Below, in pieces: positions 3,293-42,457 of a DNA stretch of 64,000 nucleotides. This stretch comes from Psammoneis japonica (Eukaryota). The notes below the pieces were generated by a model. The model was given only the letters and a program-made list of their open reading frames with translations. It did not search any database and had not been told where the DNA came from. The DNA lies in the NCBI GenBank assembly GCA_008632985.1, contig QPGO01000127.1:62001-126000 (forward strand), written 5' to 3'. Made by a program: the position numbers and the translations under genes. Each line of letters begins with the position of its first letter. Position 1 is the stretch's first letter.

Positions 3293-3461
3293 TTGCGGAC
3301 TGGCAGTGTTGGGACAATCTAACGGATGTCTAGGACAGATGACAATCGTGCACTGGATGAGAAAGAAAGTGAGCAAAGGAGAGATCATCGGATCTCTCCA
3401 TGCTGTCCATGCCAGTCTGTCCGACACAAGGGAGTGTGCTCCCCATCTCGGATGTCTGTCA
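3293..3461 (-). repeat. 3' LTR of the Copia element
   Basis: Direct repeat of 10116-10286 (14 substitutions plus one 2-bp indel by manual alignment); begins TGACAG on the minus strand. Confidence 0.93.
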
Positions 3462-3470
3462 CCCTCCCCT
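3462..3470 (-). promoter_or_regulatory. Polypurine tract (PPT)
   Basis: AGGGGAGGG on the minus strand, immediately 5' of the 3' LTR. Confidence 0.85.
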
Positions 3471-3629
3471 GATGAGCAATGCAATGCTCAACAAGAAAGA
3501 AAGAGACGATCCAAATAAAAAGAGAGGACCAGAATGGCAAAGAACAAAACAAATGAAACAGAGACACACCCAAGACTCAATCCACAACAAACCCGACAAC
3601 AATCAACGGCAGTGTCCCATCAAGCGGCG

Positions 3630-4152
3630 GGCATGGCGGGAATGGAGCATTCAACCCACGGCCTTGGTCAGCACATCAGCAGGGTCAATGACACCCGGGA
3701 CATGTCGAGTGACAATCTTGCCCATGTCACGCCAGTCTTGGATGGCAAAATGTTGAACATCAATGTGACGAGATCGCTCCGCAGGCACCTTGTTGTTGAT
3801 CATCTGGATGGCAGAGGAGTCATCAATGTGCAAGGGAGCAGGATCACGTTGGGGAAAACCCAATTCTTCCAGAAGTTACAGCCGCGAGGAACTCAGCTTC
3901 CATGGAGCTGGTGGCGGTGATCGTTTGCGCGTGGCATCGACAGTCAATCGCAGCACCAGCAAGGACATGCGCATGGCCAGCAGCAGAACGGCGACGCCAC
4001 AGTTCATTGCCATGTGCCGCATCAATGAATCCAAGAAGTTGGAAAAGGTCAACAGCACAAGGAAAATCCAGGAGAGATGGGTCATCCTTGAACCATTCAA
4101 AATCGCGAGGAGGCAGGCCGGGATCGCGTTTGGACTTCTTGCAGGTCAGTCC
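3630..4152 (-). pseudogene. Copia RNase H region (disrupted)
   Basis: ORF 3651-3863 carries IDDSSAI...ERSRHIDVQHFAIQDW...PADVLTKAVG, the Ty1/Copia RNase H C-terminal motifs. Confidence 0.85.
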
Positions 4153-6924: not shown

Positions 6925-7246
6925 CCATCAGCAAGGGATCAGATGGACCTTGTTGGACGTTGATGAAAAACACTGCACGTTGACATGCATCGTCAACATC
7001 ATCAACCAAGGATGAGTCAGGGGTCGTCGATGTCGAGGGGACACCAGACGGAGATGGAGGAATCAGGGGTTGTGTGAACACCTTGCCATGTCGAAGTGCA
7101 CCATGGACAACCACCGCTTGTGCATCAGTGGAAGCAGTGCAAGTGCAAGTGCCATCGGCACATGTCTTCTCAAGGAGCTTGGAGCGAATGGACTGAGATT
7201 TGAAACCAGAAGCCCGCGCAAAATCACGTTCATCAATCAAAGTGGA

Positions 7247-8229
7247 TCATGGACTGGGATGGTAAAAAGTGCGCATGAGAAGAAAGCCTTCAGGGTTGTC
7301 TGCAGGTGCCTGCAGGCATCCAAAGCCATGAGGAACCGCATCAGAGCCTTCAGCAGCCGGAAGCATCTTCAAAGGGCATGGGTCATCTGGTCCAAAAGGA
7401 GCACATGTGTGGAGGAGGTTCTTGTCCCCTGTGCAGGATGCCCAAGCACCAGCATCAATCTGTGCACGATGTGTCGTTGAATCACGAAGCACATGATTGA
7501 TGGGAACGACTGGGGCAGTCAAGGATGCAAAGGTCGCAGGTGACTCCGGGGGAGAAAAAATCGGGGAGATGCGCACGGCACTGAGAGGCGACAAGTGCTG
7601 GGTGTTAGTCACATCAAGACACTCAAATGGTTGGTCCTGATCAGTGGACAATGGAGTGTCAGCATCCAATGCAGGAGGATCGAATTCCCTCCCCTGATTG
7701 TGATTGCCAGGGTCATCATCAGGAATCGTCTTGGGATCAGGAGCACCAGCCTTTGTCGAGCTCGAAAGAAGGGCAGCAAATGAGACAGGTGAAAGAGGAG
7801 GATCAGCGGAAGGTGACAAGTCATTTTGACCCTCTTTCACAGTTGCCCCGCTAGCAGGAGTTTTCGGATTGGAGGACAATGGGCAGCATTGTTTGTCCGA
7901 ACATGACAATGGCCCCAGGAAAAATCCTTCTTGGCCGTGCCAGACTGAAGTGCATCACGAGCACGCTGGTCACGTTGAAGAAACTGGGAGAACCGAGTGA
8001 GATGGGTGCGCAGGTGCTCAGCATCATTCAACACAGGACACTCATGGAACAAGTGGTTGTCACCACAAACAACACATGGACGGTTCTGTGCAATGGCAGG
8101 CGAGGACTTGATCCTGCAGATGCAGGCCTTGTGGACACCGTGGAGGGCTTGTGCATCATCATCTGGAGGAACATCCACAGTGGCAAGTTCATTTACAAAG
8201 CACTCCACAGTTTCCGCAGGTTTGTCCAC
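7247..8229 (-). pseudogene. Copia gag zinc knuckle and aspartic protease region (frameshifted)
   Basis: CVVCGDNHLFHEC (CCHC knuckle) in ORF 7837-8229; AQIDAGAWASCTG (protease D-x-G-A motif) in ORF 7247-7909. Confidence 0.75.
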
Positions 8230-8670
8230 AGGAGGAGAGTCAGATTCCTTGGGAGAGTCTTCAATTGCTGGAGGCGGAGCAGAAACTTCATCCTGGGGGA
8301 CCGCAGACAGGAGCTGCGAGAGGAGGAGGAGGCGACAACGTGGAGGACATTTGGGAGGGTCCTTGACACGCAGAGCTGGACTGTCCGGTTCCTTGAGAAT
8401 GGCACTGATGGTTTTGACAATCTTCTTCTGGGTGAACTTGTGTTGTTGGGTCTTGTCTTCCCGGGCATCCGCTGTTTTACGGTGAAGGCACTCACCACAG
8501 CGGGCATTGCTGAGAAAAATGTCAAGCTCACCAGGGTCATCAAGAGATGCACCAACATTGGAGATGACAGCTCACAGCTGAAGGCAGTCTCTGAAAAGAG
8601 CACAATGGCCAAGGACCGTGAGGTTGTTTTGGTGCGGGTGGCTCTTGATCAACTCATGCGGGCGCTTCGT

Positions 8671-9912
8671 CTAAATCGGCAGAATGTCAAAGAGAATCAT
8701 CTTGATGGCTGCGTGTCCATCACCGTGACATTGGCGAACAATGTCAGGGCACTTGGAGTCTGTCGGAAAAATTCCTTTTTTCTGAATGTGCTGGAAGACA
8801 GTCAGTTTCATTTGGTCAAGTGGTGCCATCATCCGGAGAGGCAGATCATCGGTGGGATCATTGCCACAAGTGAAACCCCAATTTCCACCATCCTTGACAA
8901 AACACCACAGAGGGCGCATGTGTGCACCACAAGCCGAGGCTTGTTGGGTTGCAGCAATGCACCATGCATGGATTCCTTGAGGGGAGATGTCATCACAAGT
9001 GAGATGATCGCGAAGGAATGATTTTGCATCCCAGTCAGTGCGATGAACAAAGAGTGAGCCATCAGTGAGAATGAGACGCTCAGTGCCATCCTCGCAACAA
9101 AGGTTTCCAGACTTGTGTGGTGCCAGGGATTTGCCAAGTGCTGCTTTCCCAGCTTCCTTGCGCTGACAGCGGGCCAGCACATCCTTTGGAAGTCCTTTCG
9201 GATTAAAGGTGCACACAGCACTGGCAGCAGTCAATGAAGAAGCCACACCAGCAGCAGTCATGGCAGACGGTGCAGGAGACAACACCTTGGGAGCAGAGTT
9301 CTTCAATGCGTTTGTCACGGCTTGCTCAAACTGTTTTGGACCAGGTGAGTGAGCAGCCAGGGCCTTGGCAAAGTCCTCAGGAGTGGGACCTGTGGCAGCA
9401 ACTGGTGCAGGTGCAGAACTCAAAGCAGTCGGTGGATCCGGGTGCGGATCATCAGAGATGTCATCCCAGCAATCACAATGTCGAAAACGAGGGATGAAAT
9501 GGAAACGCAGAGTCCCAACATGCAGATGCATGGTGTCGTCGTTCTCTGAAATTGCCTTGATCACAGTCTTCTGAAGAGCACTGAGGTTCAGACGAACCGG
9601 GGGGCCTTGAGGAGCAGCCACAAAGAGAGGAGCCTTCTCAATGATCGGTCCAATTCGTGCAAGACCCTCAGTCTGGAGAGCTTCAGGGATGATGAGATTC
9701 TGAACAATCTTGTGTCGAAGGACAGCAACAGCGTCGCTCTTGAGGCCTTGAGGGGTGAATCCATCCAAAAGATCTTCAGGAGCAGGGATCTTGTCCGAAC
9801 AAAGAGCATTCAGGAAAATGTGGGCATCGGGCATGCGATCATGTGGGCTGAATTCAACCCGCATTGTCTTGATCTTGGTCAAATCGACGGCGTTTGGATT
9901 TTTGTTCACCAT
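8671..9912 (-). CDS. Copia gag N-terminal region
   Basis: Long ORF just downstream of the 5' LTR/PBS (ATG at 9912, MVNKNPN...). Assignment is by position within the element. Confidence 0.7.
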   Translation of the reverse strand: MVNKNPNAVDLTKIKTMRVEFSPHDRMPDAHIFLNALCSDKIPAPEDLLDGFTPQGLKSDAVAVLRHKIVQNLIIPEALQTEGLARIGPIIEKAPLFVAAPQGPPVRLNLSALQKTVIKAISENDDTMHLHVGTLRFHFIPRFRHCDCWDDISDDPHPDPPTALSSAPAPVAATGPTPEDFAKALAAHSPGPKQFEQAVTNALKNSAPKVLSPAPSAMTAAGVASSLTAASAVCTFNPKGLPKDVLARCQRKEAGKAALGKSLAPHKSGNLCCEDGTERLILTDGSLFVHRTDWDAKSFLRDHLTCDDISPQGIHAWCIAATQQASACGAHMRPLWCFVKDGGNWGFTCGNDPTDDLPLRMMAPLDQMKLTVFQHIQKKGIFPTDSKCPDIVRQCHGDGHAAIKMILFDILPI

Positions 9913-10105
9913 GGTTGCGCGGGAAAAAAAATTAAATTCCTGTGCAGAGCTCTGGCATGTGTTCTGCGGTGGTCGTTTGATCACAAATCGAGAGGTGAAA
10001 AAACAGCTGTGACAATGATGACGATTTCAACGAAGAAAAAATCGCCAAATCACACAACAGGCGTTGCAACAGAGGAGCACAGAGGAAGAGGAACAGTGCA
10101 CTGCT

Positions 10106-10115
10106 GCTCATGACC
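10106..10115 (-). promoter_or_regulatory. Putative primer-binding site (half-tRNA-iMet type)
   Basis: GGTCATGAGC directly after the 5' LTR resembles the GGTTATGGGC PBS of Drosophila copia-type elements, with one TA->CA change. Confidence 0.55.
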
Positions 10116-10286
10116 TTATGGACTAGCGGCATCGGGACAATCTAACGGACATCTGGGACAGATGAGACAATCGTGCACCAGATGAGAAAGAAAGTGAGCA
10201 AAGGAGAGATCATCGGATCTCTCCATGCTGTCCATGCCAGTCTGTCCGACACAAGGGAGTGCACTCCCCATCTCGGATGTCTGTCA
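10116..10286 (-). repeat. 5' LTR of the Copia element
   Basis: Direct repeat of 3293-3461, flanked by the TSD copy TCAAG. Confidence 0.93.
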
Positions 10287-13200
10287 TCAAGTGCCTGGGT
10301 GTTCCAGGCTCTTTTGCCTTCAGTGCTCTGTCATCCTTGAGAAATCATGAGGCATGTTCTCCAGCTCCAGGTGATGATGAGCTTTTCATCATGCAAGATT
10401 TTCCATGCAGTTTTCAGCACCAGACAATCTTGTCTCCACCCGGCAGAGCTCACACTTTTTGGCTTTTGGTGAGCAACAATTGTTTTCATGTTGTTGTGCA
10501 TTTGTGACAAAAGTGCATGTCTGCAACAACTAAGGTGCACATTTTGTCACAGAAAAAATGGCATCACTTGGCATTCAATGTTTTTCTGGTGATGCACAGA
10601 ACAAACAATGCTGACTTCCATGAGCTCATGTGCCGCCCCCACGTCAAAAACACCCAACACACAATGTCAGCCACAACATCAGCCACAATGCAGCACACTG
10701 CTGTCAGGTCTGGTGGGCCTTGACATGGAGCCTCACGAGGAAGAAGACAGCTGCTGCTGGGACCAACAAAACAGATTCAAGCAAGCCAGTCAATTTGTCT
10801 TCATCTCAGCCAGCAGCAAGCAGAGTGCAGCACATGTTTTGTCCCTGTTCAAGACATCAGCTGAAAAGTGAGAACTCTGGAAATTCTGGAGCAGGAGAGC
10901 TCTTCAAAAAAAGCTCTCATGGTTTCTAAAAGCTTTGGGGTCACACGCCACTCTCATGTTTGGTCAAATGATTGTTTTTGTGAGGGAGCTTGTGCCGATG
11001 GAAAATGTGACAACATGCAGCAATCGGATGACCTCAAAATCTTCAACCAATGCCACAGGCTTCCCGTTGAAGCCAACAAAAGCACACACATGGAGAGCAG
11101 CATGCAAGACACTCCATTTGCCCTTGCCTCAATGAGAAAGTTGCCACTGCAATCATCATCTTGAATGAGAAGCATCACATGGTCAACAAATGGAAGCAAA
11201 TGACAGACAGATGGACTTTGTGGCATGGACACTGCAGCACTGCACAGGTGGGGGCCAGCGGGCGGGGTGATGGAGCAAGTGGAGCAGAGTTTGAGATGAC
11301 ATTGGACTTGCACTTGTGTTTTGGGTTTTGGACCATGTCCAAGTCCCTCACTCCTTCCAATGGCATGTCCAAACTCACCAAGAAAGCTCTTCCAAGCTTT
11401 CAGCTTGAGCTCCTGGTTTTGAAGCATGGGGATCTCAGTCACCTGGCATGGAAGAGTGGATCTGTGCCTTGCAACCCTGAATGTCTTCATGTGATCAACG
11501 CCTCAGAATTTAAGAGTCCTCAGTTCAACAAAGACGAAGGTTCTGATGCTGTTGTTTCTGATGCCTTGCTGCCCATTGACTGGAGGAACCCCGTTTATGA
11601 TGAGGATGACAACAGGTTCAATCTCAAGAACAAAGTTCACTTGCCACTTTCACGGGCGCTCAAACAGAATTGCAACATGACTTTCTTGCATGATTGCAAC
11701 AGCTGCATTGTGGCCGGTGCTCAGGACACCATGGTGGTTTCTGCAAGTGAGCTGGAAACTCAAGTTGTTTTTAAAGAGAAGAGCAAAAGCCTCACTCAGC
11801 ATTTGTTGGGTTCAGTTGGCACAACCTTTCCCCAAATTTGCAAGTCTGGCCAAGAAGCATTCATTGAAGGAAGACCCATGAAAACCAACACAGCTGGATT
11901 CTCTTGTCCTCTCATTCTTGCCCAGCTTCTGGAATGCATGGCAGCTGAAGCTGCTGCATGCAGTGTCATTGTCACTTCTGGATGAGCTTGCTTTGTTTGG
12001 GTTGAAGTGGGGCAGGAGCAAAATGGTTGCAAAGAGACACCAGCAAAGAAGCAAAAAGGCACAAAGAAAAAGGTTCCTGCATTGGCAGTTTCAAGTGAAG
12101 CAACAATGACAAGTGGCGCGCACTTGACCAAATCCATCAAAATTGATGACGCTCACTTTCTACATGTCATGCACAACTTCACATTTCAGACCAAGGAGGG
12201 TTGCATGATGGACAAAGGATTGACAGCCACCAAACTGCTGAATGCCCCCTCTTCAAATGGAGGGTTTACCCGAGGTGAATCACAAGACAACAAACCTCAA
12301 ACAAGAAACCAGCTGACATCAGTCAGGTGCCTGATTTGTTCAAGCAGTGGTGTTGCAACTTCTTTGCCAGGTGCGAGGTGATCTGTGATCTCCAGGTTTC
12401 CGCTTGTTCCTTGTTTGTGCAAGACAAGAGTTGTTGCCAAAACCTTGGGTCAAAACAGGGAAGGTCAAGTGCCGGCTGCAAATTGGAGCAGTGTTTCAGC
12501 TGCGGCAAAGGTTGTCAGCCTCTGGAACAATGTGCGTGAACAAATGCATGCACGATGTGTTTTTGAAGGTGAAGTCAAAGCCTCTGCAAATTGGCTGGAC
12601 TGGCTGGTCTGTGGGGCTTGGCTGTCCCACAACCCACAACCTTTCTTTGCAGCAACGGATGACAAGCAGTGCATCCCTTGTGTCCAGCTTTGGGTGACCC
12701 AATGCCACTGGATCCCAAGATGTGGACCACTTCTGAGCTGAGACAGGTGACTGAGAGTGCTCTTCTTCTTTTTGAAGCTGGCGCTGAGTTGAGTGACATC
12801 AAACCTGCCAACTTCATTTGCATCACCAAATGCAATGTTGTCAATGCATCACAGTGCACTGAAGAACAAAGGGTTGTTGCAGTTGAACTCAAGCAGCTTT
12901 TCATGGAGGCAGAATCTGACTGTTTGAAGCTCCCAGAATGGATGTTTGAGAAAGCAAAAGCAAATGCTGTGTCTCCTGGACAATGGACTGCTCAACCAGG
13001 ATGTGTGCTCCCTTCCACACACCAATCAGTTGTCAAGAGAAAGGAACAACTGAGCTGCAATGACCTCTGCACACAAGCCTTGTGCAGGTGCAGCTTCAAC
13101 AGCCACATCTTCTTTGTCTTCACTCATTGCAATGAGTCCACTTGCAGACGGGTTTGCAGCTGTTCTTGTGCATGGATCTCGATTGTCATTTGCCATTTCC

Positions 13201-14502
13201 ATTTCTGATTTGAGCATGACTGGCCAACCCTGCATGCAATGTGCTTGCAGTTGCAAAAGCACTGAGTTCAAATTTGAAAGACAAAGGTTTGAAATTGTGC
13301 AACAGTTTTGACCTTGTCATTTGTCCTTCACACTTTTTTCTTCATGTGGCTCTCCATTGACTTTTTGACTGACTGCAAAGCAAAGCCACTGCCCCTTCCA
13401 TGATGGGGCTCTGTTCACAAAGACTGGGGTTTTTGCTGGCTTCATCTGTGAGTTGCACTTGCCCACTTCCTTGCAACCACACTTGGCATCAGAACAGCAC
13501 GAGAGTGAGAGTCCCCCAACGGGAGCCATTTTTGCCAAATGATTCCAAGTGCTCAGAATGACTGTCTGTTGTGGCACAGCAAAATCACCATGAAATTTGT
13601 TGAGCTTGCCAAAAAATGACAACTCTCCTCCTTTCACACTGAAAAGTGACAAGGTGAGCATCTCCTGGAAAACGCCCCGCACCAGCCACGCCACACCAAA
13701 GCCCAAGAAGTGCTGTGTGCTTGGTGCTGTGCTTTGCTGATCATTTGATGGTGGCAGCCATCAAGAAGCCACTGTGGGTGCACCAATCATCACACACAAT
13801 GGTGTGCATTCATTTGCAAATAATGGAAAATTTCTCAGCGGCCCTGCCCGCCGTTGCACATTGCTGAGCAGCAGCGGGCACTGCCAACCATTGTTGCCAC
13901 ACCCCTTTTTTGACACAAACACACAAGCCAGCAGCACCCAAAGCATCACTGTCATTTGTGTGACAGCAACAATGTGTCTTGATCACACATTGCTGCCAAG
14001 TGAATGTGATGCATTTGACACCAAAATAACGCGAGTCATTGTGGCCCAAACACTGCAACGTCGTCACGCTCAGCTCGGAGCTCGAACTTTTTGGAATTTT
14101 AATCCTTTATCCAACTTTGAATATCACTAAAACACCAAATTTGGTTAGCATCTCCGTTGTGTTACAACATACTAGTCTTCACGTAAATAGAATCCAGTAG
14201 GACGTCTACAGCAACGACAAAAATGGCAAACCACACGAAACTCCACACGAGTCGTCACACGAGATCAGTGACTGTGCCCAGGCATTCGGTATGGAGGGCA
14301 TCATTTCTGGCCCCTCTTTGTTGCAGCCCTCATACTTTTGGCTGGAGACACAAACTCAGGAAAAGGAAGGGGGAAGGAAGAATTCGTGCACGATTGAACT
14401 GAGCTGTGTCATCCAATCGCTGTTCCCGCTTTTCTATTCCAGAAGCCGCGGAGCAAGACAGAGAAATCGAAAAAAGAGGACGGCACTGAACGATACTGTA
14501 GA

Positions 14503-20405: not shown

Positions 20406-20529
20406 AAAAGCGAGATTCGTCGCTTGGGGCTAACTACTAACTACTAATCGATGCATTGACAAGGCTTCGAACGCTCCACGTGTTCTCAAACTAGCATCCA
20501 TGTTATTTCTTTCAATCGAATCATGTTAT

Positions 20530-21760
20530 CTTTTCGGTGAAGCTGCCGCTGAGTTGGGGTCTGCAATGTGAGCAAGATGCTCGAGGTGGAATCCGCTGGC
20601 CATTTCATCATCTGTGTGTCTTCAGTGTTGATCTTCCAAACTTTGCTGTCAACACACACATGCCATGAACAATGCAGGTGACAGAATCTAAGATGTGTGC
20701 AGTGACAGTGCATTGGACACCCAAAAAATTGAGTTGGAGATCTGGTCAAAGATCTGTCTGTAAGTTCATGTGTGCCTCTCATGCAGGTGGAGGGGATGCC
20801 AACACCCTCCCCTGACATGCCATCTTCCCAGCAACATGACAAAACACAAAGCACAGCATCCCAAAAGAGAAAAAGTCAGACAGCAAATCCAAATGTTGCC
20901 AGGAGTGTTGAAGAAGAGGTGCACAGGTTTGGGGGGTTTGTGCCAGCACACATGGCTTGTGCCAGGATCATGCCCAGCGATGCGTTTTTTGCAATCCCGA
21001 GCCGGCCACACCACTGGCGCCAGATGGGTTCCAGCCCCAGGTGGGGCTTTTTGTGACATTGGGCCCGCAGAATTCTGCGTGCGAGCTCCTCAGTAAAATT
21101 GTTGAGCAATGGACATGTGAATGATCGCCAACAGAAAAAGAGGCAATTTTGCGAACGCATCTCCTCCTCCACACTTGAAGTGCATTCTTTGCAGTGTGCC
21201 CAGGTGTGTTCTTCAGACATCAAAGAACACACCCAGCGCATTTTTGTTGACACAAATGCAGACAACAGAAAGCCTTTGGCTTCACAAAACAGGCAGTGTG
21301 GAACAATTTTTTACAACAAAACACGTAGAAATGTGCGTGCAAAACATGCGATGGATGACAAAAAAATGATTGTGTCACAGTTCAGTGGTGTGAGATCCCA
21401 CCTGCAGCTGGAGCACGTCGCCACACCAGAGAAGAGTCGCAAGAGCAGAGGAAGGGGAACAAATGCTGTTCACACCCCCTGGGAACCCACACACATTGGC
21501 TTGATGACAAAATGCACTGTGATGTTGGCTCCAAAGTCTCTTGAGGACATTCTCGCCACACAAGAACAAGAGGTGTGTGTGGGGTGGTGGGGGCGTCTCA
21601 TGAGGCATCGTTGGTTGAAAGGTTGCTTTTTGCGGCGGCTTTGCAAGACAGTCTCCTCTGCTCATTGCCTTTTGTTCGAACATTTTTTGAGCAAAGCAGT
21701 GCCGATTTTCAACCGAAAATGTCATTGTCATCTCTCATTAATTTTCTGTTGCAATGAGGT
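20530..21760. mobile_element. TpA-depleted degenerate repeat island containing a nested MITE
   Basis: Local loss of TA and CG between the bestrophin and HSF genes; contains the MITE at 21023-21419. Confidence 0.55.
21023..21419. mobile_element. ~400-bp MITE, copy 1 (4-bp TSD GCCA)
   Basis: Imperfect ~24-bp TIRs (GATGGGTTCCAGCCCCAGGTGGG...CCCACCTGCAGCTGGAGCACGTC); GCCA at 21019-21022 and 21420-21423; colinear homology with 24383-24782. Confidence 0.85.
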
Positions 21761-22387
21761 TTATGGTTTTTAGGATTTTGTGCTTTTATAACTTCGCCGA
21801 GCATGCATGCATGGCATGCGCCATCGGTGAAGTGCTCTCGGCGGCGGGGTTGATTGGCCTGAGTGACTGAGTCAGACATCCAAGTGTCATTTCTACGTGG
21901 GAACCGGTAACTCCATCCGCAGAGCAGGAACAGAATCAGAATCCGCCACCAGGCCAAACTTATGTCTTCTACCAAAGCTTTGAAAGTTTATATCGGCTGT
22001 TGCCACGTCGGCGGCAGCTTGCAGAAAAGATCTTGTACGGAGCATTACGTATCGCTTACGTCGCACATTTCTAAAGGCGGCGCAAGGACATGAATGAGAG
22101 AAGCCCAACAGGTGTATCTGACCAATCAGATCGTTTGAAATGAAGAGTGACGTGAGCACGGCGTCAAACGGTGTGACATCATCCAATCTGTTTCTTTCGT
22201 CTGTGTCTTTCCCCCCACGTAGATTTGCGTAGAATTCCAGTATGGCGTAAACTCACGAGGCAATTTTGAAATTCGGGCGGGAAACGTCCTTGCGTGGCAA
22301 GTGGCAACATCAATCATTTCACTCTTTGAAACAAGAGCAATTTTACATGCAGGGAGAGTGGACTCTGTCTTCTAAGCTAAAGTGACA

Positions 22388-23340
22388 ATGCAAAGCCTTT
22401 CCCATGGAGCAAACCAACAGGGTGGTCTATGTCACCTTGTCGAAGCTGCAACGGCACTTTCAAGCTTAGTAAAGACGTCTCCATATTCTTCTTTCCCTCC
22501 GAACTCTGCCATCACAAAAAGTGCCCCGACGCCTTCAGTTGTGAGTGTCAGCGACGACGAGTCCGCCGAAGTATCCAAGAAATCCCCAACGAGCAAGCGA
22601 CGAGAGATCTTCCTCAGCGTCTTTTGACAATCCTGAATGATTCGTCCCTTTCCGACGTTGTTTCGTGGTTGCCACACGGACGCTCATTTGTTATTATTCG
22701 TCCCGATACGTTCGCCTCTCAAGTTCTCCCCAAGTATTTGCCATCCGACAAGAGCTCCACCAAGTACCCATCCTTCACGCGAAAGTTAAATCGCTGGGGA
22801 TTTCGACAAGCCACACGAGGGCCAGATACTGGAGCCTTTTATCATCCTCTCTTCAATCGGGACAAGCCAGAGTTGTGTCTCGGTATGGTATGCCAGAAAT
22901 CAAGGAAAGGTAGCATCAAGCGTTCGACCAAGTCGAGCAACAAGAAGGAGCAGGATCACAAGACTTCACAAGACACCCCATCCACACCCAAAAAGCGCGC
23001 TCCATCACCACCACAAGGCTCTTCTCTTCCCCCCAAGAAAAGAAAAATGATGACTGCGTCTTCAGAACCCATGGCGGAAGAGAAGCCTGCTATTGTTACT
23101 CCGCCGCCTGAACAAAAGGTAGCAGCGCCGTCACTGGTTACAACGGCGACTGCTCCTTCATTTCCCATTATCCTACCAAGTGCATCCATGGCGAGAGGTG
23201 TGGCCCCTCTCTCTGCATTGGTCCCGACGGATCCAGAGTTTGTTGCAGCGACGCTCAAGGTGCGAGATAACGTGGAGAAGATGGCAGTTGCCAAATGCAT
23301 GCTATACGATGCCTACCTCAAGGCATTGGATGGACGCTGA
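22388..23340 (+). CDS. Heat-shock-factor-type transcription factor (frameshift near 22610)
   Basis: HSF DNA-binding domain: PQRLLTIL...VVSWLPHGRSFVI...KYPSFTRKLNRWGFRQ...FYHPLFNRDKPELC. Confidence 0.92.
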
Positions 23341-23468
23341 TGTGAAATATCTGCTCGGGGACTAGTTTGTTAATAAAGTTTTAAGCTGTTTTTACATGAA
23401 ACACTGTTGCTCTTATTCCTTTGAATCACACAACGCGAGATCGAGATTACTACAGCTTAAATCTCTAG

Positions 23469-24973
23469 TGTGAAAGCCTCACAAACTGAATCGCCTCTTG
23501 GTGAAGAGACATGTCATATCTCGTTTACGGGATAATGATTTGGTACATCTGCCAGGCATTCGTACAACAAAGAAGTTGATGTCACTTCAGTTATCTCGCA
23601 TGGAATTCACCAACTGTTCGAGCTCATTCAAACTCTGCCAAGTCTTTTAGATCCATCACTCTCTGCGCAGCGACATCAAAATCCAGCTTCGCGATTCGCG
23701 CGACGATAAGTGAAATGCAGATGACGACATTGGGGGGGTTCGCATGGGCCTATACTTTGGAGCGAAGTGAAAGATGATGTGGACCCAATCGCCGCGCGCG
23801 CACACATTGGGGGGACACGTCAGACACCAATGTGAAAGCCGTAGCCTCACAAACGGAATCGCCTCTTGGTGAAGAGACATGTCATATCTCGTTTACGGTG
23901 ACAGGACAATGATTTGGTACATCTGCCAGGCATTCGTGCAACAGAGAAGCTTGATGTCACTTCAGTTGTCTCGCATGGAATTCACCAACTGTTCGAGCTC
24001 ATTCAAACTCTGCCAATCTGTCAGATCCATCAATCTCTCTGCGCAGCGACATCAAAGTCCAGCTTCGTGATTCGCGCGATGACAAGTGAAATCAGATGAC
24101 AACATCAGGGGGGTTCGCACAGGCCCATGCTTTGGAGCGAAGTGAAGGATGATGTGGACCCAATCGCCGTGCGCGCACACATTGGGGGGGCATGTCAGCA
24201 GTGTGAGAGCCTCACAAACTGAGTCGCCTCTTGGTGAAGAGACATGTCATGTCTCGTTCATGGTGACAGGACAATGATTTGGCACATCTGCCAGGCATTT
24301 GCACAACAGAGAAGCTTGATGTCACTTCAGTTGTCTCACATGGAATTCACCAACTGTCCGAGCTCATTCAAACTCTGCCAATGACGGGCTCCAGCATTCC
24401 CAGGTGGGACTCCGTGTGACATTGGGCCCACAGAATTCCACGTGCAAGCTCCGCAGTGAATTTGTGCTGCAATGAAAACACAAATGATTGCCAACAGAAA
24501 AAGAGACAATTTTGCGAATGCATCTCCTCCTCCACGCTTGCAGCACATCATTGATGGTTTGCCCGGGTGTGTTCTTCAGACATCAAAGAATGCACCCAGC
24601 GCATTTTCATTCTCACAAATGTTGAAAATAGAAAGCCTTTGGCTTCACAAAACAGGGAGCATGAAACAATTTTGTAGAGTGCGACACACAGAAATGCACG
24701 TGCGCGACATGCGACACGATCCAAAAAACTGTTGATGTCACAGTGCAGCAATGCGAGGTCCCACCTGGAGCTGGAGCACGTCCAATCTTTTAGATCCATG
24801 ACTCTCTGCACAGTGACATCAAAACCCAGCTTCGCGATTCATGAGACGACAAGTGAAATCAGATGACAACATTGGAGGGGGGTCGCATCGGCCTGCACTT
24901 TGGAGCGAAGTGAAAGATGATGTGGACCCAATCGCCGCATGCTCACACATTGGGAGGGGACACGTCAGACACC
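23469..24973 (+). repeat. Three tandem copies of a ~365-bp unit; the third is interrupted by a MITE
   Basis: Copies start TGTGA(A/G)AGCC at 23469, 23831 and 24202; copy 3 resumes at 24783 after a 400-bp insertion. Confidence 0.92.
24383..24782. mobile_element. 400-bp MITE, copy 2 (4-bp TSD CAAT)
   Basis: TIRs GACGGGCTCCAGCATTCCCAGGTGGGAC / GTCCCACCTGGAGCTGGAGCACGTC; CAAT at 24379-24382 and 24783-24786. The empty site (CTCTGCCAATCT) is visible in tandem copy 2. Confidence 0.92.
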
Positions 24974-27900
24974 CAGCAACTTGTCAAGCCCCCGCCCACT
25001 GCCACATGCGCACCACCTTGCCCATGCTGCATGTGTTCCCAGCATGTGCAAATGCATCTTCAATCAGATTCAAAAACACAGCTCATGATGAGTGGGATGG
25101 GATGTGTCCCACGCATGAGTTTTGGGCATGTCCCTCCAGCCACCTGCTGCAGCTGGTGCTGGTGGGTGTCCAGGCTGTCACATCTTGTGGGGGGATGAAC
25201 TTTTGTTTTTAGGCTGGCAGCACCACGTCTGGAACCCCGCTCCCAACAAGAGCACAGCAAGTTGCAAGAGAGATTTCTCAAATTGCGCAGCTGATTTTTG
25301 CGTGCATTCATGAAATTGCACTCCTGCAACATTTAAACTGAACATGTTTCAACTTGCGTGTGGCCAATCTTTTTTGCATTTTAACATCACAAGCTGACCA
25401 GCCAAGACCCACCTGCCCTGTTTGAAGAATTCTTCCCATTGCGCGCTGCTTCATCAAACAAACAACTTGATGTCAACAACACAAGCTGGCAGCTTGGAAG
25501 AGTTTGAAACCATTCCAGAAGAGCGAGAGCCACACAGCTTCTTGTGTGAAGCCCAAAACATGACACAGGCAGCAACTGGAGAGAGGCTCCCACCTCACAC
25601 TTTTTTGTTCCACCCCAAGTGCTCTCCAGGTGGGGCACATTGACGCGCCATCAGAGCTGGGCATTTTTGAACAAAGACAGGCATGGCACAAAATTTGCTT
25701 GACATTTTTGCACAACAAAAATCATGTTAGAGAAACACTGTTGTGTGGCACAGTTGACACAAGGAGAAAATTGCTCACACACTGGAATTTGCCGCAGTGA
25801 GTTTTTTGGCCATGCTGAAGAGCATGTGAGTGGACCTTGGCCTTTGAGCATGGTGGCATCCAGCCAACAATTGCACTGCAAAGCTTCCGTTTTTTTGTTG
25901 TTTCAAATGTGCAGCTGCTGCTTGTTCTGGGAAACAATTGCCCCAACTTGTCAAAAAAGAGTGCAGCCCAGCTGCAAAGCAAGCGACGCTTGTCATCCAG
26001 CAGCTTGGCTTTTGTGCCAACAGCCTCAGCAGAAGTTGGCCAAAAAAAATGCAGACAAGTTTGGCAGAAATTGGTGGGAAAACAAAAAAATGCAGACAGC
26101 TGTGACACAAGATGAAGCACTGGGCATTTGCAAGGCAATGACTTGTTTGCAAGAGCAGCAGATCTTGCTTTCCTGGTGCTCTGGGTGAGACCTTGTGGTG
26201 CTGGGCCGTGGCAGAACTTTTTTCACATGCTGCACAAAAGCCACGCACATTCCTGCATGCATGAGCACTCTTTTGAAATGTTGTTCTACACACACAGCAT
26301 TTTGCAAAACCAACAAAATTTTGTTTTTCAATGATTTCCAACAGCAGAATCAGGCTGATCACTGACTTCAATGTTCAGTGTCTGAAGAAAGCAACTGAAA
26401 CACCAGAAATGACACAATCCAGGCATGAGCACTTGAAGTCAGCTGCAAAATTGCACCCTTTTTTGTTGGGAGTTGCTGGCCCACTCCTTGCCCAGTGGGC
26501 TCTGAGCAATGTGGAAAACTGCAGATTTCTGCATGTGAGCTCTGCACTCTGCAGTTCATGCACCAGGTGATGAGTGCATTTGTTTTTGACATCTGAGCAA
26601 ATGACCAAGCTTGCGGTGCATTGTTTGTGCCTCTCAACACTCAAAGAAGTTTTTGGAAGTCTGCCTGCATTGTGCAGCTCTGCTGTCAAAGGTTGTCGAG
26701 TTGATTGCCCAATGACTGTGCTCATTTTTATGAGCTCCAATTTGCAGAGAAGTTCACTGTGAGATCTGCTGCATTTTCACATGGTTTGTGCCAATTGCTT
26801 CACAGGGTGACATCATTTGACATCCCCGCCAAACTGTTTTTCTTTGGACACAACACATTTTTGCTGGACAGAGAGAACTGTGGGCACATTTTGCACAGCA
26901 CACAACTTGCAGATTGTTGTGTGCAGGGGTGCAGAGACAACCTTTTGGCAAGTTCCACTGCAGCTGCGCATGATGCAGCCAAGCTGACAGGCAGTGCACC
27001 TCGCTGGTTGATCAGGGGCAGTTGTGCTGCAAAACAATGCAAAATGTCATCAAAGTCATGTGGTGTGCAGAAGTGCATGTGCGCGACACATGGTGCATGA
27101 CAAAAAAGTCAAAGTCAGAGTCAGAGTCAGCGGTGTGAGGTTCCACCCAGAGCTGGAGTGCACTGCCCAGCAACTCTTCTGCAGAGCTTGCACACAGAAC
27201 TTTGTGGTCCTGACATCACAGGGGATGCCTCGGCCCACTTGCATGTTGACAACACAGACTGCACTTGCCAGTGTGGGTCCAATGTGGCACAGCTGTCGTG
27301 AGGTCGCATTGTGGGACCAAAAGAGATGCTGCACAAATTGACCAACAATGAAAAAACATTGACGATGCCTGCAACATGTTCCTGTGCTCAACAACAAGAA
27401 AATCAATGAACAGCAGCCACAATTTTTGCGTTTGTGGTTGCAATTTCCACAGACACCCCATTTGCTCAAACTTTGACCATGCTTCTTTCTGTTGTGCTTG
27501 CTCATTTAAAAGTCACACATCTGGCATTTTTCTGAAAGTTGTTGGTGTTCACAGATTGCAGCTGTGGCTGCATTGAATGTGCAACGTCTCATTGTGTGAA
27601 GTTTCATCTTGTCAAGAGTGCACTCATTTGGTTGGAAGACCTTCCATTTGATTGCCCATTGTCTGCATTTCAGGGTGTTTCTTCTGCACTTGTCTTTCTT
27701 TGCTTTGTTGGACACCACACAACTTCTTGTCTGCCAGCCCATTGTTCCAGCAACAATGGTGTGCCTTTGCTGCAACCTGGTTGCATGTCTCACAACAACA
27801 ACAAGTGTGCTCTCCAGATGTGTGCTCATCTTCCTTCTGGCTTGGCCTCAAGATCTCCCAGCCATTCCCTTGACTTGGTGGGCTCTGATGGGCTCACATC

Positions 27901-30900
27901 TGTCTCCACTCCAGACCTTTGTTTGACGTCAGCATCTCTGGCAATGACTTTTCTTCTGTTTGCTCATCTTCATTTTTGACTGTGCATGACAATCAGCCAC
28001 AGTTTCTTGTTCAGCAAAAGCTGGTTTTTCTTTCCCTGATGCCTCTGCCAGCATTGCACTTGGGTGGCCAACACCTCCAAGAATCCACCAAGTCAGTCAT
28101 TGGCAGCTCTGCCAGTTGGCAAACAAAAACAAACCATTTGCAGCCATTCCCCTGAGACCAGCCCCACCTGCGTGCACCCAAAACCTGTGAAGTGCAGCAA
28201 GGAAATTGCACTTTCATTGAATGACAAAATGGCTGAACTCATTCAAAGCAACAAGCTCAATGGGATCTGTTCTGTCCTCTGTTGCTGGCTGCCTCCTTTG
28301 TCTCAACACCTGTCTGCCATCAGCTCTGTTGGCATGGACAAATCCACATTGAATGTGGCAGCAGAGGAGCTTCTGGAATTGACACACAGACTGAGAGTGC
28401 CGTGGCCAGAGATGGCAAAAGCCCAAGTCTTCACAAGGAATGAAGAGGCCAAAAACTTTCAGGAAACATCAAGGTCATTTCAGCAAGTGAGCCCATTGTC
28501 CACATGCCAAGGAACACAGAGATGAAAAGATTTGGATCTACAAAGCTCATCCAAAGCATGTGGACAAAGTTGGTGATGGCTGCATGACTCTCACCCTGCT
28601 TGCCAGCTGGCATGTGAGTGTGTGGCACAAACAAGTGGCAGCAGTGACAGGAAGGAATGGCGCAAGACCCACACAGTGGTGTGCTGCAAAAAGAAAACCT
28701 TCTTCATGATTTTGTGTGCTGCAGAGTTTTGCTCCTCTTGTGACAAAACAATGTTGGCCGGCAGGTCCTTGCGCAAATCTGCAGTGGTGTGCTGACCTGT
28801 CAAAGAGAGGATGACAGCAAAAGGTTGGAAAGCAGTGTGCACCCAGAATGGAAAAGACAAATTGCTTTCAACAGCAGATTTTGAGCCACCAAGTGGAAGC
28901 TTGGGCTCAGCAGATTTTTGACTGTGTGTGCCAAAAGATTGGCTTTGGAGCCTGGGCTCCATGGCTGATTGCTCCATCAAAGCTGATCCCCAGCACCTCA
29001 GCAGCCACATCTGGCTCTGGCCAGTGTTCTTCAATTCCACACATTCCATGTCATGGCACACACTGAAATCTGTCAATGTGACTGTGTTTTGTGTGGAAGA
29101 CGCAACTGACATGATGCATTTCTCCACAAGTTGCCACGGTGGTGTGTGGTTGTTTTTGGCCACTTCTTTTGACTTTGCAGTTGCAGAAGCAGCAGCACCA
29201 AACAACAATGTGAAGCAGATGCCGTGTGTGTTGTAAAAGAGATGGTGAGCTGTGGTTTCTTTCTTGCCAAAACAGACTTGTTCTGTTCGCAGGATTTTGC
29301 AGCTCTGTCGTGGATCACAAACAGTTTGTGCATGGGGTCACTGAAACAGCTCTGTCTGGCACAGAAACAACCACATGGACCAATTTGGATGTGGTGGATT
29401 CAATGAGAACATTTTTGTGCTGAATGAATTTAGAGTGGTTGAAATGGCTGAGAAGAGGGCACACAGTGACTTTCTTTCAAGTTGATGGTTGCTGAAGTCA
29501 CAACAAGGCTGTGGTTGTTGCACTCAACAAAAAAGAGAAATGACACCTGCAGACTGATCAAAATGTGGCAGTCATGATGGTGTCATTTTTGTTGTCTTGA
29601 GCAGGTGGAACTGCTGTGCATGGTCACCGCCATTGTTTTGTTGGGGCGCGTGCTTCTCTGTGCTGCACTGTCATGTCTGGGCAAAGGAACCCCAAGGGGT
29701 GCTTCAAGCTGGTGGCGAAATCCATTGTGGCACAGAAGCAGAAAGATTCTGAAGTGTTTGGGTTTTGGATTTCCCATGTTTCCATCAATTTGTCAGCCCC
29801 AAAAAACAATCTTTTAGACCCATTTTCCCCTCCAAGAGTGCAGCAGCATTTGGAGAATGCGCCATCAAGGGTGGCAACAAACAAGTCATTGCCAGCCATT
29901 GGCAGAAGCACATGATCCATTTGGGCTTGAAGGTGAGCCACAAAAGTGCTCCATTCTTGGCCTGTGACAGAGACAAGGCACCGAGGCCACCCTTCTCCCA
30001 AAACCTTTCACCAATGGAAGGTGTGACAAGTGCTCTTGTTGGTGAGTGCAAGACCCACCGCAAGAAGCCATGCTCACAAAGGGAGAGTCAGGTGTTGCGC
30101 CAACATCAAGGAGTGATTGGAAATTCATGGCACACCCCCAGCCTTTTGTTTCAAGAGAAAGCCAGCATCTAAAAGAGCATCTTGCTCAACCTTTGATTTC
30201 TCCACTTTGTCAAAAAAACCTTTGATGTTTTCCAGAGCAATCAGCTCACCAGCATGGAGGGTTTGCCTCTGGGCTTTCTGGTGCAAGCTGTCATGACAGC
30301 AATGTCAGCAAGCCTTTCCTTGAGGGTGCTGTGCTTGAACTTGCAAAACAGACAAACCCTCCTCACCTTGCTTTTGAAAGGCAGCATGCACACCCTCCAA
30401 GAAAAGGCACGCCAGTGGAGCAGCACAGGTTTGTCCAATTTGTTGCACAGTGTGTGATGCTGGGTGGCCCCAGTGAGATCCCTGTTCTTGAGCAGCGGAG
30501 CTTCACCCAGCTTGTCAAAAAAGACAAAAATTTCCCACACAGAGGGCAAGACATCATTTGCACTGGCTTGAGCATTGGCTTGGTTTGCAGGAGGTGCTGC
30601 AGCTGCAGCAGTGCAAGGACCATGACTTCAAGGGCTTGCCCTCATGCCTTGCAAAGGAAGTTGGCCTCTTCCTCTGCCACCTCAATGGCCACCCCCACAA
30701 CCTCCACATGGCCACTGTCAAGACCACCACAACCTCTTCTTCCAGCAGCCTGGTGCTGGCAAGTGTTTGGCATGATGACAGCCCAGCAGCAACACAGAGG
30801 TTGTTGTGTGTGTGTGCAAGTGTCATGGCAAAGATTGCTTGCTGCACTCAGAAGTCCCACAAAACTGCAAAAAACACTGTGCACATGAGCACAAATGCAA

Positions 30901-33900
30901 AAATTTTAATCTTGGCAAGAGCAGATTGTTGTTGCAAAGAATGAGGTGTCAACATTCTGCAGACGCAAATGCGCTGCATCTGATTAAACAGTGCTCCACC
31001 CACAGCCACAAACCACATGACAGTTCACAAAAAAATGCCCAACAACATGGGCAGCAGAATGACTCTCATTTGTGTCATTTGAAATTTTTGAAATCATTGC
31101 AAACATGTGTGATTGTAGAAATAAAAAAGAACAGCCACTTGCACAATGAAACATGCAATGATTGCCAGGCTTGCTGGCTCAGCATTGGGCCAAAGCACAC
31201 ATCATTGCCACCACCACACAATGGCATTGCAGGAAGGCACAAACAAAGCCAAGGATTGTGCACACCCTGACAAAAAAAGCCATGAGAAAAGCAAGAGGCC
31301 AGAAGTGTGACATGCAAGCAGGCAGCACTCAGATCATGCAAATGACTGACAATTTTGCCCATGCTTCAAACTCGCATGTGAATTGATGCAAGTGTCAACT
31401 TGCGTTGAACATTGTGCTGCAACATTGCACACAGATGAGCAGAAGCGCATTGTTGTGAAACCATTGGAACATTCAAAACTCACAACATCTCTGCTTTTTC
31501 TGGCAGAGGTGTTTTGCTGTGGCCTTCCTTGCACAATGAATGGTGTGCACACAGCCAATGTAAAGAGAACCAGCAAGATCAATGTGGGGGGTGGACATTC
31601 TCAGAAATGAGCCACATTGGCAATTTGTTGCACATGTGCAGTTGTCAAGATAAAAATCTGACAAGTCACATGCACTGCTCATCATTGTTGTTTCCCACTT
31701 TGCCAATTTGCTTGGTTGTCAGTGCAACAACATTCATGACAATCACACCACAAATGTGCACAAAAATTGCACGCTGCAAGACCAGATTTCAGGTTTTTTG
31801 TCAAGCACAGGTCAACAACTCTGAGCAAGAGCAACAACATTTTCCAGACAGACTGTGAGACAAAGACAAGGCACAGCACTTGCAGCAATGGCCTGTGGTT
31901 CATGCCCCCTGGTTTGCAAAGCTGAAGGCTTTCTGCACTCTTCATTTGTGGCTGCAAAATGGGCCCAGGCAAACCAGAAAGGACCTGCTTTAAGTGCAAT
32001 GAGGACACACATTTGCAAAATTGACTCTTTTTCTGTTGTTGAGCATTCATGTGTCAATTGCTTGGTTTGCTGTGGAGCTTGCACATGTGGAATTCCATGG
32101 GCCCATGTGTCACATGGATTTCTGCCAAGAGAGCCAGAATGTTTCTGGCGCTTCTCAAGGGCCTTCTGCTGCATGGTGATGACAGTCAATGCAGCCAAAG
32201 ATCTGCTCTGATTGTCAAAATGTGCAACTTGCTGATGATGGCTCCATTGGTCAATGGATGACATGAGTTCTCAAAAGAGGCATGTTTGTTGGGTGTGACA
32301 GCAGCTTGCAGGGCTGCAATGCTCCATTGGATCTGGTGGTGCTTGGCTTTTGTTGACATTGTGCCAACATGCTTTGTTTGTCCTTCTTGTTGCAGAGCCT
32401 GTTGCGCTGGCTGTGCAAACAAAATGGCATGGGATGTGCTGCCACTGGCTTGGAGAAGATGTCATCATGTGCTCTCACATTCACAAAGTTGAGTTCCCTG
32501 AGAGGACATTGCTGTTGCTGCTTTGGAAAGAAAAGGGGGTGCTCCTGCTGAACTCCCACACATGGCTGATGCGTGCACTTCAGCTCCTCAGCAAGGGGCT
32601 GTTTGCTGTCGCTGGCCTGCCACACAGCTCAGCCATGACAAGGGTGCCTCGAGCCAATTTGATGCGTTGCCACAACAAGATTGGACTTTTCTGTGTGCTT
32701 TCACACCATCACTGCTTTCAGAGCTCAGAGGGAGAGTGTGCTTTCTTTCAAACAGAGGATCCCCTCCTTGTGCACCCAAGAGCATCGCAGCCACTGTGAG
32801 ACATGTTTTTCTCTTCGCCAGCGGTGCTGATTTCTTTGCATTCTCCTCTTGCTCCATTTGGCACAAGCAACATGTTGACTCTCATTTTGCTCTGGGTTTT
32901 TGTTGCTCTTCTTCTTCAGAATCTCCAAAACACAAGTGCTGTCATTGGAAAGCGAGTTTTGTCAGTGCAGGCAAAACATTCCCACAAAGGATGTTCCCAA
33001 GATGTGGGTCGCTCATCCAGGCTCACATTGTCACACAAGCATGGGCCCTTGTCAATGTCATCTGCTGACCTGCCATCAGGGTGTTGCTGTGCTGATGATC
33101 ATGCAAAACTGCAGCTGGCAGGAGTGTCTGTTGTTGGGAGTGTTGCGTGCATGGACCAAAGACAACATGACACCCTGGTCATCATGAAAGCACAGACTTC
33201 AGCTTTTCACATGAACAAAGGGGGAAGACATGTTTTGCTGCAAAAAGTCAGCTCAGTTGTGAGTGCACTTGCTTTGTCCTGTTGCAAGAAGCTGTGCCAA
33301 CTGCAGGAAGCATGTGGGCTGGGCTCTTGTTTCGCGCTGCAGAGCTCCAGGTGACACATGTGGAGCCCTCCCAGGCCTGGGACTGGAATGCATTTGAAGA
33401 AGAGAGGCATTGTCATCTGCCCATGATGCTCCTTCAACTTGTTTGGCACACCAGCATGACTGTGTTGCACACAGCTTGGAGCCTCAGCATGAATTGTGAG
33501 AAGTTCTGGCTCTGGCTCAAATGTCGTTGCAAACAAGGGGTTTTTGGGGGGGGCGAGCCCCGCCACACACCAAGTCTCAAGTGCCTGGCACCTTTGCTCA
33601 CACCAGCTGCAGCAACAGAGAGGGGCAACAGACACAGCTGAGAAGAAGCTGGGTGGGAATGAAGACGTGCAAGGCAGGCATTTGCCTCTCTGTCCAAGTC
33701 AGCAGCACATCGTCTGCCGCAAACAAAATGCGTGCAGCGCCGCACCTCTCTTCTTTGCTGCTGCTGCTTGATCAGCTTGTTGGCACATCTCACACACTTG
33801 TCAGTTTGTTGCATTGGTGTGGTCATTTTGATGTGTGCTCTGAAGTTAAAGTCACTGTCTCTGGCTCGCTTCCGTCCGTTGGCTTTTTTGGCTGCCAGAG

Positions 33901-34200
33901 TGTTTGTTGAAAAAGAGAGCCGGGGGGAGTGCAAAAGCACTCCTCTCTCACCACTGCAAGACACAACAAGGGGGGTGTCAAACATCTTCCCAAAAACATC
34001 TTCACTTCCTCAAGCAAAAGTCTTTCAACCTGTGTCTGTTTTCTTACCTTCACAATCCAGACTGCTGGCTTTGGCTTGTGGTGTGGCGCCTGCGCGATTG
34101 GTGAATGCGCGAGACAGCTGGAAGGTGTCGAGATGCAACGGGCGCGCGCGCGCGGGGCCGAGCGATGAATTTTCGAAGAATTTCTGCGGCGGATCAAAGC
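24974..34200. mobile_element. Long, heavily degenerate unclassified repeat tract depleted of both TpA and CpG
   Basis: About two dozen TA dinucleotides in ~9 kb by eye, few CG, and an excess of TG/CA. Only short Cys/His-rich spurious ORFs. Confidence 0.6.
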
Positions 34201-42364: not shown

Positions 42365-42457
42365 TAAGAGTTCAGCGCTGATTGCTGATTGCACCCGCAC
42401 TCGCGCGCTGGGGATGCGAGTGATGTGAAAACTAATGGCAACATACAGTATTTGTTT

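Follow-up and report, generated by a model that had tools for sequence, protein, structure and literature searches.

Targeted hypermutation of selfish DNA is, to our knowledge, well understood only for fungal repeat-induced point mutation (RIP) and for animal APOBEC/ADAR. A process specific to TpA, converting A:T to G:C, was first reported in 2026 from one chlorarachniophyte, with neither an enzyme nor a targeting rule (bioRxiv 10.64898/2026.01.13.699255). Two integrated viral regions acquired 231 de novo mutations in mutation-accumulation lines of Bigelowiella natans, 230 of them A→G/T→C (Mettrop et al., bioRxiv 10.64898/2026.01.13.699255, 2026). According to the same preprint, the A→G/T→C mutations all fall on TpA, the genome holds 124 clusters that are poor in TpA, rich in CpA+TpG and enriched for reverse-transcriptase and DDE domains, and an ADAT2-like enzyme is proposed, without a test (bioRxiv 10.64898/2026.01.13.699255). 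Diatom transposons are CpG-methylated (PMC9998398, PMC5124317), and neither full-text literature searches nor the pertinent passages of these two papers yielded a report of TpA loss in diatom repeats. Here we describe a stretch of 64,000 nucleotides from Psammoneis japonica (contig QPGO01000127.1, positions 62,001 to 126,000; hereafter the window), in which a tandem triplicate of a 365-bp unit lies across the border of a domain nearly devoid of TpA. The host is, judging from its proteins, a diatom, because the relatives of a Ty1/copia element in the window include Nitzschia and Cylindrotheca, an importin-like gene (35288-37609) finds its best matches in Thalassiosira and Skeletonema (~50% identity), and the gene beside the array encodes an HSF DNA-binding domain. 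We consider it very probable that the transposon domains of this window underwent an in-place conversion of TpA to TpG or CpA together with a decay of CpG, and that the array straddles the edge of one such domain.

The triplicate is an ordinary low-copy local tandem repeat placed across the edge of a transposon-rich domain. Tandem Repeats Finder gave a period of 365 bp and 2.5 copies at 23469-24382 with 89% matches, and the remainder of copy 3 was found at ~24783-24975 by a repeat search and blastn, copy 3 being split by a 400-bp element with terminal inverted repeats (TIRs; 24383-24782) and a 4-bp target duplication. Copies 1 and 2 are ~90% identical. Through copies 1, 2 and 3 (both halves of the last taken together), the number of TpA goes from 10 to 4 to 1 and that of CpG from 23 to 20 to 12, and CA+TG rises from 61 to 70 to 79. 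In the rho profile, the dinucleotide make-up of the HSF-type gene to the left of the array is normal. The coordinates of these and the other features are collected in Table 1.

Table 1. Features of the window on which the analysis rests (positions are those of the window)
Feature	Position	Strand	Remarks
HSF-type DNA-binding protein gene (open frame)	22381..23340	+	Pfam PF00447, E = 2.5e-16; TpA rho 0.45-0.52
Tandem copy 1 of the 365-bp unit	23467..23832		outside the hypermutated domain; 10 TpA, 23 CpG
Tandem copy 2	23833..24199		4 TpA, all at or before 23918; 20 CpG; domain edge between 23918 and 23937
Tandem copy 3, first half	24200..24382		zero TpA
Tandem copy 3, second half	24787..24975		single TpA left, at 24791
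TpA-free, CpG-poor, CA/TG-rich domain	23919..34044		23 TpA in 10,126 bp; CpG rho from 0.65 to 0.08-0.27; CA/TG rho 1.7-2.1
Second large TpA-free domain	2700..14026		36 TpA in 11,327 bp; contains the Ty1/copia element
Small TpA-poor island	20528..21738		5 TpA in 1,211 bp; surrounds the second MITE copy
MITE-like TIR element, 400 bp	24383..24782		TIR ~13 nt; target duplication CAAT at 24379-24382 and 24783-24786
Second MITE copy (copy A)	21023-21419		80% identical; target duplication GCCA
Ty1/copia element	about 3290-10286	minus	long terminal repeat remnants near 3290-3461 and 10113-10286; pol frame 4156-6927

A first-pass annotation of the window had pointed out that the same sites resolve differently in the three copies, and each of the sites that it named is present in the sequence: TATA (23751-23754) reads CATG in copy 2 (24126-24129) and TGCA in copy 3 (24894-24897), CGTAC appears as CGTGC and TGCAC, GATAAT as GACAAT, TTATCT as TTGTCT and GATAAG as GACAAG, with GGTAC and CATATC retained in copies 1 and 2 and replaced by GGCAC and CATGTC in copy 3. 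At positions 23563, 23751 and 23753, one of the other copies has TG and the other CA. We aligned the three copies and scored the transitions in copy 3 per base context with copy 1 as the reference: 9 of 20 TpA bases and 10 of 46 CpG bases had changed. Of the other A/T bases 4 of 157 had done so, and of the other G/C bases none of 121, so that the excess at TpA over other A/T bases is beyond chance (odds ratio 31, P = 2.5e-7, Fisher's test). Between copies 1 and 3, TpA loss is nearly saturating and faster than CpG decay (9 of 10 TpAs lost, 10 of 23 CpGs). By majority rule over the 44 variable ungapped columns of the three copies, 13 are TA→TG/CA, 14 CG→TG/CA, 7 other A:T→G:C, 6 transversions and 4 part of TG/CA double sites, and no column shows the creation of a TpA. 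Note that three indels unite copies 2 and 3, and the singletons of these two copies are therefore properly polarised. The GAAAG/GAGAG and GAATC/GAGTC differences, from which a weaker WA target had been proposed, are also present in the sequence, but such a target was not borne out, as the A→G changes outside TpA follow A five times and G three times in the array, and A three times, G four times and C once in the copia element.

The annotation had further described a load increasing from copy 1 to copy 3 with distance from the HSF gene. For CpG decay this gradient holds (23, 20, 12), whereas the TpA pattern is a step inside copy 2, located at 23919-23936, since the homologous TpAs at 23885, 23894 and 23918 are retained and all six further to the right are gone. 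Given 7 losses among 10 sites, the probability of this kept/lost arrangement is 4/120 = 0.033. The relevant distance may instead be that from the MITE (miniature inverted-repeat transposable element) inserted in copy 3 and from the transposon domain, the MITE lying 464 bp from the edge. On this reading, the domain begins some 90 bp into copy 2: what precedes that point, with all of copy 1, lies outside and retains the ancestral TpAs, whereas the remainder of copy 2, the whole of copy 3 and the inserted MITE lie inside and have lost theirs, homologous sites being resolved independently, as TG in one copy and CA in another.

The edge in the array, where the last regular TpA at 23918 is followed by the next one at 24629, belongs to a pattern seen throughout the window. 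Each of the 1-kb windows that make up 3001-14000 and 24001-34000 has a TpA rho of 0.00-0.10 (0.00-0.06 for the domain that starts in the array), compared with 0.34-0.86 for gene-bearing DNA; the CpG values are 0.08-0.77 for the domains and ~0.64-1.07 for genic DNA, and CA/TG rho reaches 1.5-2.1 in the domains. Taken together, the three domains hold 64 TpA in 22,664 bp, compared with 1,226 in 30,637 bp outside, and their longest gap free of TpA measures 1,856 bp, whereas none of the 1,225 gaps outside is longer than 208 bp. At 14.0 and 34.0 kb, the limit of TpA loss and that of CpG loss fall within one and the same 200-bp window. The two strands are equally represented, with 1,198 CA and 1,152 TG in 23919-34044 and, in the copia element, 15 TA>TG and 11 TA>CA. 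The genes between the domains have normal dinucleotides, and the domains contain the copia element, the MITE and degenerate repeat DNA. The DNA affected comprises an element with long terminal repeats (LTRs), a DNA-transposon MITE, a tandem repeat and the flanks of single-copy depth around MITE copy A. The 64 surviving TpAs lie mostly in TTA/TAA, with T as the 5′ neighbour in 50% of cases versus 21% outside and A in 8% versus 28% (both strands); this excess of 5′ T may stem from a preference at position −2 or from TpAs of recent origin. GC-biased gene conversion was considered as a source of the domains and rejected, as it does not depend on base context and the domains have the same G+C as the remainder of the window.

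The domains also affect annotation. TpA-free DNA lacks TAA and TAG stops, and long spurious overlapping open frames arise there for this reason; Pfam gave no match on seven open frames within the TpA-free domains, nor in the frames overlapping MITE copy A (21057-21770) or beside the MITE of copy 3 (24817-25209). The transposon proteins within them are hard to recognise. In practice, TpA-free domains can be expected to yield spurious long open frames and poorly recognisable transposon proteins.

The MITE in copy 3 is short and non-coding and has TIRs, a target duplication and a high copy number: the word depth of its family in contigs from a public sequencing run is 5e4-2e5 versus 30-80 for unique DNA, hence probably thousands of copies. 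This comparison of run contigs with the window covered 40 of 253 difference rows, of which 22 concern the two MITE copies of the window, and the longest 17 of ~4,000 records. Among the rows covered, three sites at which the window copies have C before A (24439, 24584, which is the same site as 21221, and 24697) carry T in the majority of the family, at 65-73% of depth, and at 24647, 24688 and 24716 a CA of the window corresponds to CpG in the family. The array unit was also seen to share a 17-nt inverted match (94%) with the MITE end (24732-24748 and 24806-24822), which may be due to common ancestry or to chance.

The same mutational process could be aimed not by a chromatin domain but by repeat homology, as in RIP, and the affected DNA does consist largely of repeats (copia, a MITE with thousands of copies, tandem copies). 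Several observations speak for the domain edge that the first-pass annotation had preferred to homology sensing. A 10-kb domain free of TpA and poor in CpG has its boundary in the array. Copy 1, as repeated as copies 2 and 3 and ~90% identical to copy 2, yet retains 10 TpAs, and the switch is located inside copy 2. The island around MITE copy A extends ~0.3-0.5 kb into flanks of single-copy depth that are also TpA-poor, and TA is still carried by most copies of the MITE family at the sites listed above. We therefore regard homology targeting as very unlikely. The distance of 464 bp between the edge and the MITE, the reach of the island around copy A and the sparing of copy 1 are what lead us to a reading in terms of a spreading chromatin domain.

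Four lines of evidence, from the array, the copia outgroups, the LTR pair and the MITE family, agree on a direction of change from TA to TG or CA. The opposite polarity would have CpG or CA/TG as the ancestral state, copy 1 having gained its TpAs by C→T/G→A changes, either RIP-like or by double hits at CpG; TG-versus-CA alternatives can indeed derive from CpG as well as from TpA, and CpG decay is real in the array (14 of the 44 variable columns). However, the copy that keeps its TpAs also has the most CpGs left, which identifies copy 1 as the least changed, and it shows zero polarised G:C→A:T changes. Taking copy 3 as the ancestor demands the gain of both TpA and CpG in copy 1, that is 13 G/C→A/T and 10 A/T→G/C changes out of CA/TG, and we know of no process that gains both out of CA/TG. 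With copy 1 as the ancestor, two known processes converge on TG/CA. RIP, moreover, enriches TpA in repeats, and the repeats of the window are without it; the MITE family majority is TA, as seen at 24439, 24584 and 24697, and outgroups of the copia element show tyrosine codons lost, not gained. A reversed polarity is contradicted by these results and deserves very little credence.

The pol frame of the copia element has diatom relatives at 40-50% identity, and 14 of the 38 relatives were aligned, a conserved Tyr column being one with Tyr in at least 80% of them. Of 17 such columns, 1 is kept in the window copy, 8 read His (TAY→CAY), 6 Cys (TAY→TGY), 1 Met and 1 Phe, the 14 changes to His or Cys supporting the polarity from TA to TG/CA, whereas 273 of the 384 columns with another conserved residue are unchanged (P = 6e-8, Fisher's test). 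The 924-codon frame remains open despite the replacement of these 14 tyrosines, and its Tyr content is 0.6% versus 1.0-4.2% in the 38 relatives. Overall 127 conserved columns have changed, 81 of which are explicable by one step: 15 TA>TG, 11 TA>CA, 9 at CpG, 12 other G:C→A:T, 8 other A→G and 26 transversions, with 55 inferred single-step transitions. Clustering of TA>TG versus TA>CA coordinated by strand was not significant along the element (12 runs versus 13.7 expected, P = 0.31). The lack of TpA is, by comparison with environmental sequences, not a trait of the copia family: TpA rho ranges from 0.16 to 0.79, mostly near 0.6, in 80 copia loci from metagenome contigs, and none of them is TpA-free (longest gap 355 bp), in a scan biased against hypermutated copies because one of its two search patterns contains Tyr.

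Two environmental sequences found along the way are recorded here. The sole locus with a clearly low rho among the 80 (L051, 1283 bp; rho 0.16, 12 TpA) may be partly hypermutated. A distant copia relative on an ENA metagenome contig (protein P0031, 1582 aa, 31% identity), with 1.0% Tyr and 4.1% Cys, keeps 3 of 23 conserved Tyr columns, 8 being Cys and 3 His, and resembles a second hypermutated copy from an environmental host.

If CpG and TpA carried symmetric base modifications and a long-read basecaller misread them, giving TG on one strand and CA on its complement, the outcome would resemble the pattern in full, down to its sharp edges and the random choice between TG and CA. Among the longest records, the run contigs agree with the window, with 0 differences, over 23129-23517, 23987-24333 and 24909-25982, stretches identical over 347-1,074 bp at a word depth of ~30-50; the rest of the array is covered by contig depth. 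Exact k-mer contigs at such a depth indicate accurate reads, and the same contigs separate two haplotypes at ~31x each, as expected of accurate reads. Accurate reads do not misread 5-methylcytosine or N6-methyladenine. The copia copy also bears many changes at neither TpA nor CpG, and the same process is seen with Illumina data in Bigelowiella (bioRxiv 10.64898/2026.01.13.699255). An artefact of this kind appears highly improbable to us.

The same footprint could have been acquired before insertion, by A-to-I hyperediting of retroelement RNA with its 5′ U preference or by the acquisition of TA-poor foreign DNA that then integrated. Retroelements are present in the domains, and ADAR/ADAT-type editing favours adenines preceded by U (work cited in bioRxiv 10.64898/2026.01.13.699255). 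The two LTR remnants of the copia element argue otherwise. They are 94% identical over 153 bp and differ by 4 TG-versus-CA, 2 TA-versus-TG and 2 CG-versus-CA/TG sites, 1 further C/T and one 2-bp indel; since LTRs are identical at integration, each LTR must have acquired its changes later, on its own and within the chromosome. Hyperediting at the RNA level is excluded by this divergence. In addition, both strands are equally hit (Tyr→His 8, Tyr→Cys 6, CA about equal to TG), the changes extend to a MITE, to a local tandem repeat and to single-copy flanks, and the edge cuts through one repeat unit, so that we hold editing before insertion to be most improbable. Selection against TpA without mutational bias (through TA-targeting insertion, a TA-cutting nuclease or TAA/TAG stops) is scarcely credible, for although TpA is mildly avoided in most genomes, with rho ~0.5-0.6 in the unaffected parts of this window too, conserved tyrosines of the element's own enzymes are destroyed, the loss is equally complete in non-coding repeats, and it is confined to blocks with edges tens of bases wide that coincide with CpG decay.

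In-place mutation of the transposon domains most probably combined two processes. The first, nearly complete, converted TpA to TpG or CpA, equivalent to A→G in one or the other strand of this palindromic step; the second and slower one would be the decay of methylated cytosine, CpG→TpG/CpA. As both end in CA/TG, these dinucleotides reach twice their expected frequency. We regard as established the direction of change, the dinucleotide specificity, the equal use of the strands, the timing after integration and the sharp limits coinciding with CpG loss. The domains themselves would correspond to silent, CpG-methylated chromatin spreading a few hundred bases from transposon nuclei. A candidate chemistry is the enzymatic deamination of adenine in TpA by a putative ADAT2/TadA-like deaminase, a family whose natural tRNA substrate is edited at A34, after the invariant U33; a modification of thymine, with oxidised T mispairing with G, would be expected to leave the same footprint.

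Several points weigh against this reading or limit it. The polarity inside the array rests on internal logic and on the neighbouring elements, since no outgroup copy of the 365-bp unit was found: the 64-kb window contains no further copy, and the contigs of the array (at least 80% likeness) have a depth of 35-115, about the level of unique DNA. The difference between GATAAT in copy 1 and GACAAT in copy 2 (~23907) sits to the left of the edge, one TpA persists in copy 3 (24791) and two in its MITE. The confirming run is probably that of the assembly's own sample, its platform is not on record, and its comparison with the window has the scope given above. It is CpG decay that suggests the silent methylated state of the domain, and what we describe is a footprint, with nothing in it that points to a process still active. 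Finally, because CpG decay accompanies TpA loss here, the system need not be the same as that of Bigelowiella.

Some further features of the window touch on these subjects only in part. Over 20354-20647, two contigs of near-equal depth (31 and 31.8) were found, one equal to the window and the other with 21 differences and 24 gap letters, which suggests a highly heterozygous diploid. A non-LTR retroelement (RVT_1, 1253-codon frame, 56300-62460, plus strand) has a TpA rho of ~0.18 and a CpG rho of ~0.6, a strongly pyrimidine-rich plus strand (GC skew −0.4, AT skew −0.3) and 1.0% Tyr versus 2.0-3.7% in its relatives. Over 58700-62458, it keeps Tyr at 3 of 6 conserved columns, 2 being Cys, and 253 of 290 conserved columns, the Tyr sites being few; it is possibly an early stage of the same process. 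Normal genic DNA holds a 95-bp inverted repeat, 96% identical (40379-40473 and 42272-42366, ~1.8 kb apart), and an 85-bp direct repeat, 88% identical (54727-54811 and 54930-55013).

The triplicate acts as a natural internal control, in that the same sequence on both sides of an edge gives the direction, the specificity and a limit sharp to ~20 bp. The footprint being tied to CpG decay, silent chromatin suggests itself as the aiming signal. More broadly, and tentatively, as a possibility we find somewhat harder to accept than to doubt, diatoms may have a chromatin-guided DNA base-editing defence that turns essentially every TpA in silenced, CpG-methylated transposon domains into TpG or CpA. Starting from transposon nuclei, it would reach 0.3-0.5 kb into the neighbouring DNA and end abruptly, over tens of bases, where genes begin. 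Together with Bigelowiella, it could represent an old mechanism common to the SAR supergroup, carried out by a DNA adenine deaminase (or a thymine modifier) that is new to description and that heterochromatin recruits. If this is true, TpA editing would, given that Bigelowiella belongs to Rhizaria, be an old genome defence shared across SAR. Both the enzyme and the targeting are testable, because diatoms have genetic tools.

Compared with the described systems, the locus is like fungal RIP in being a hypermutation that ruins transposons by context-specific transitions, with a dinucleotide footprint and a possible leak into flanks. RIP, however, consists of C→T changes, mostly CpA→TpA, and enriches TpA, whereas here TpA is removed; RIP depends on homology, whereas here the equally repeated copy 1 is spared and single-copy flanks are affected. 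Neither C→T changes that create TpA nor targeting by duplication was found. Decay of the kind expected of methylated CpG occurs in the same domains, gives the same TG/CA products and has the same boundaries, and its mark is present in the array (10 of 46 CpG bases changed versus 0 of 121 other G/C); but CpG decay cannot remove TpA. ADAR/ADAT deamination, including fungal A-to-I mRNA editing, shares the A→G change with T/U immediately 5′ of the target. These enzymes act on RNA, whereas here the changes are fixed in both DNA strands, after integration and in repeats that do not look transcribed; the LTR divergence, the use of both strands and the presence of non-retroelement DNA all depart from what editing of a transcript strand before integration would give.

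The closest likeness is with Bigelowiella, described in the preprint cited at the outset: in both, A→G/T→C changes are confined to TpA, give TpG or CpA on either strand, are regional and target selfish or foreign DNA. In our window, the TpA→TpG/CpA signature is found in the array (9 of 20 TpA bases versus 4 of 157 other A/T) and in the copia element (8 Tyr→His, 6 Tyr→Cys), and is confined to domains of copia, MITE and degenerate repeat DNA, with the intervening genes normal. The near absence of any other mutation class does not extend to this locus, CpG→TpG/CpA being as frequent in the array (14 versus 13 columns) and the copia element bearing many other changes. The host is a diatom, a stramenopile, there a rhizarian; rho is 0.00-0.10 over 10 kb here, whereas the preprint sections give a cluster cut-off of at most 0.43 and a value of 0.45 for the viral region. 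The tight association with CpG decay, the base-level edges and the spreading from MITEs seen here have no counterpart in those sections, which in turn provide direct de novo events where our locus provides a footprint alone. Overall, TpA-targeted hypermutation has so far been described, to judge from these sources, in only one unrelated alga, and our data suggest a new lineage with a much stronger form of it, tied to CpG decay, and thus a process that may be widespread in marine protists.

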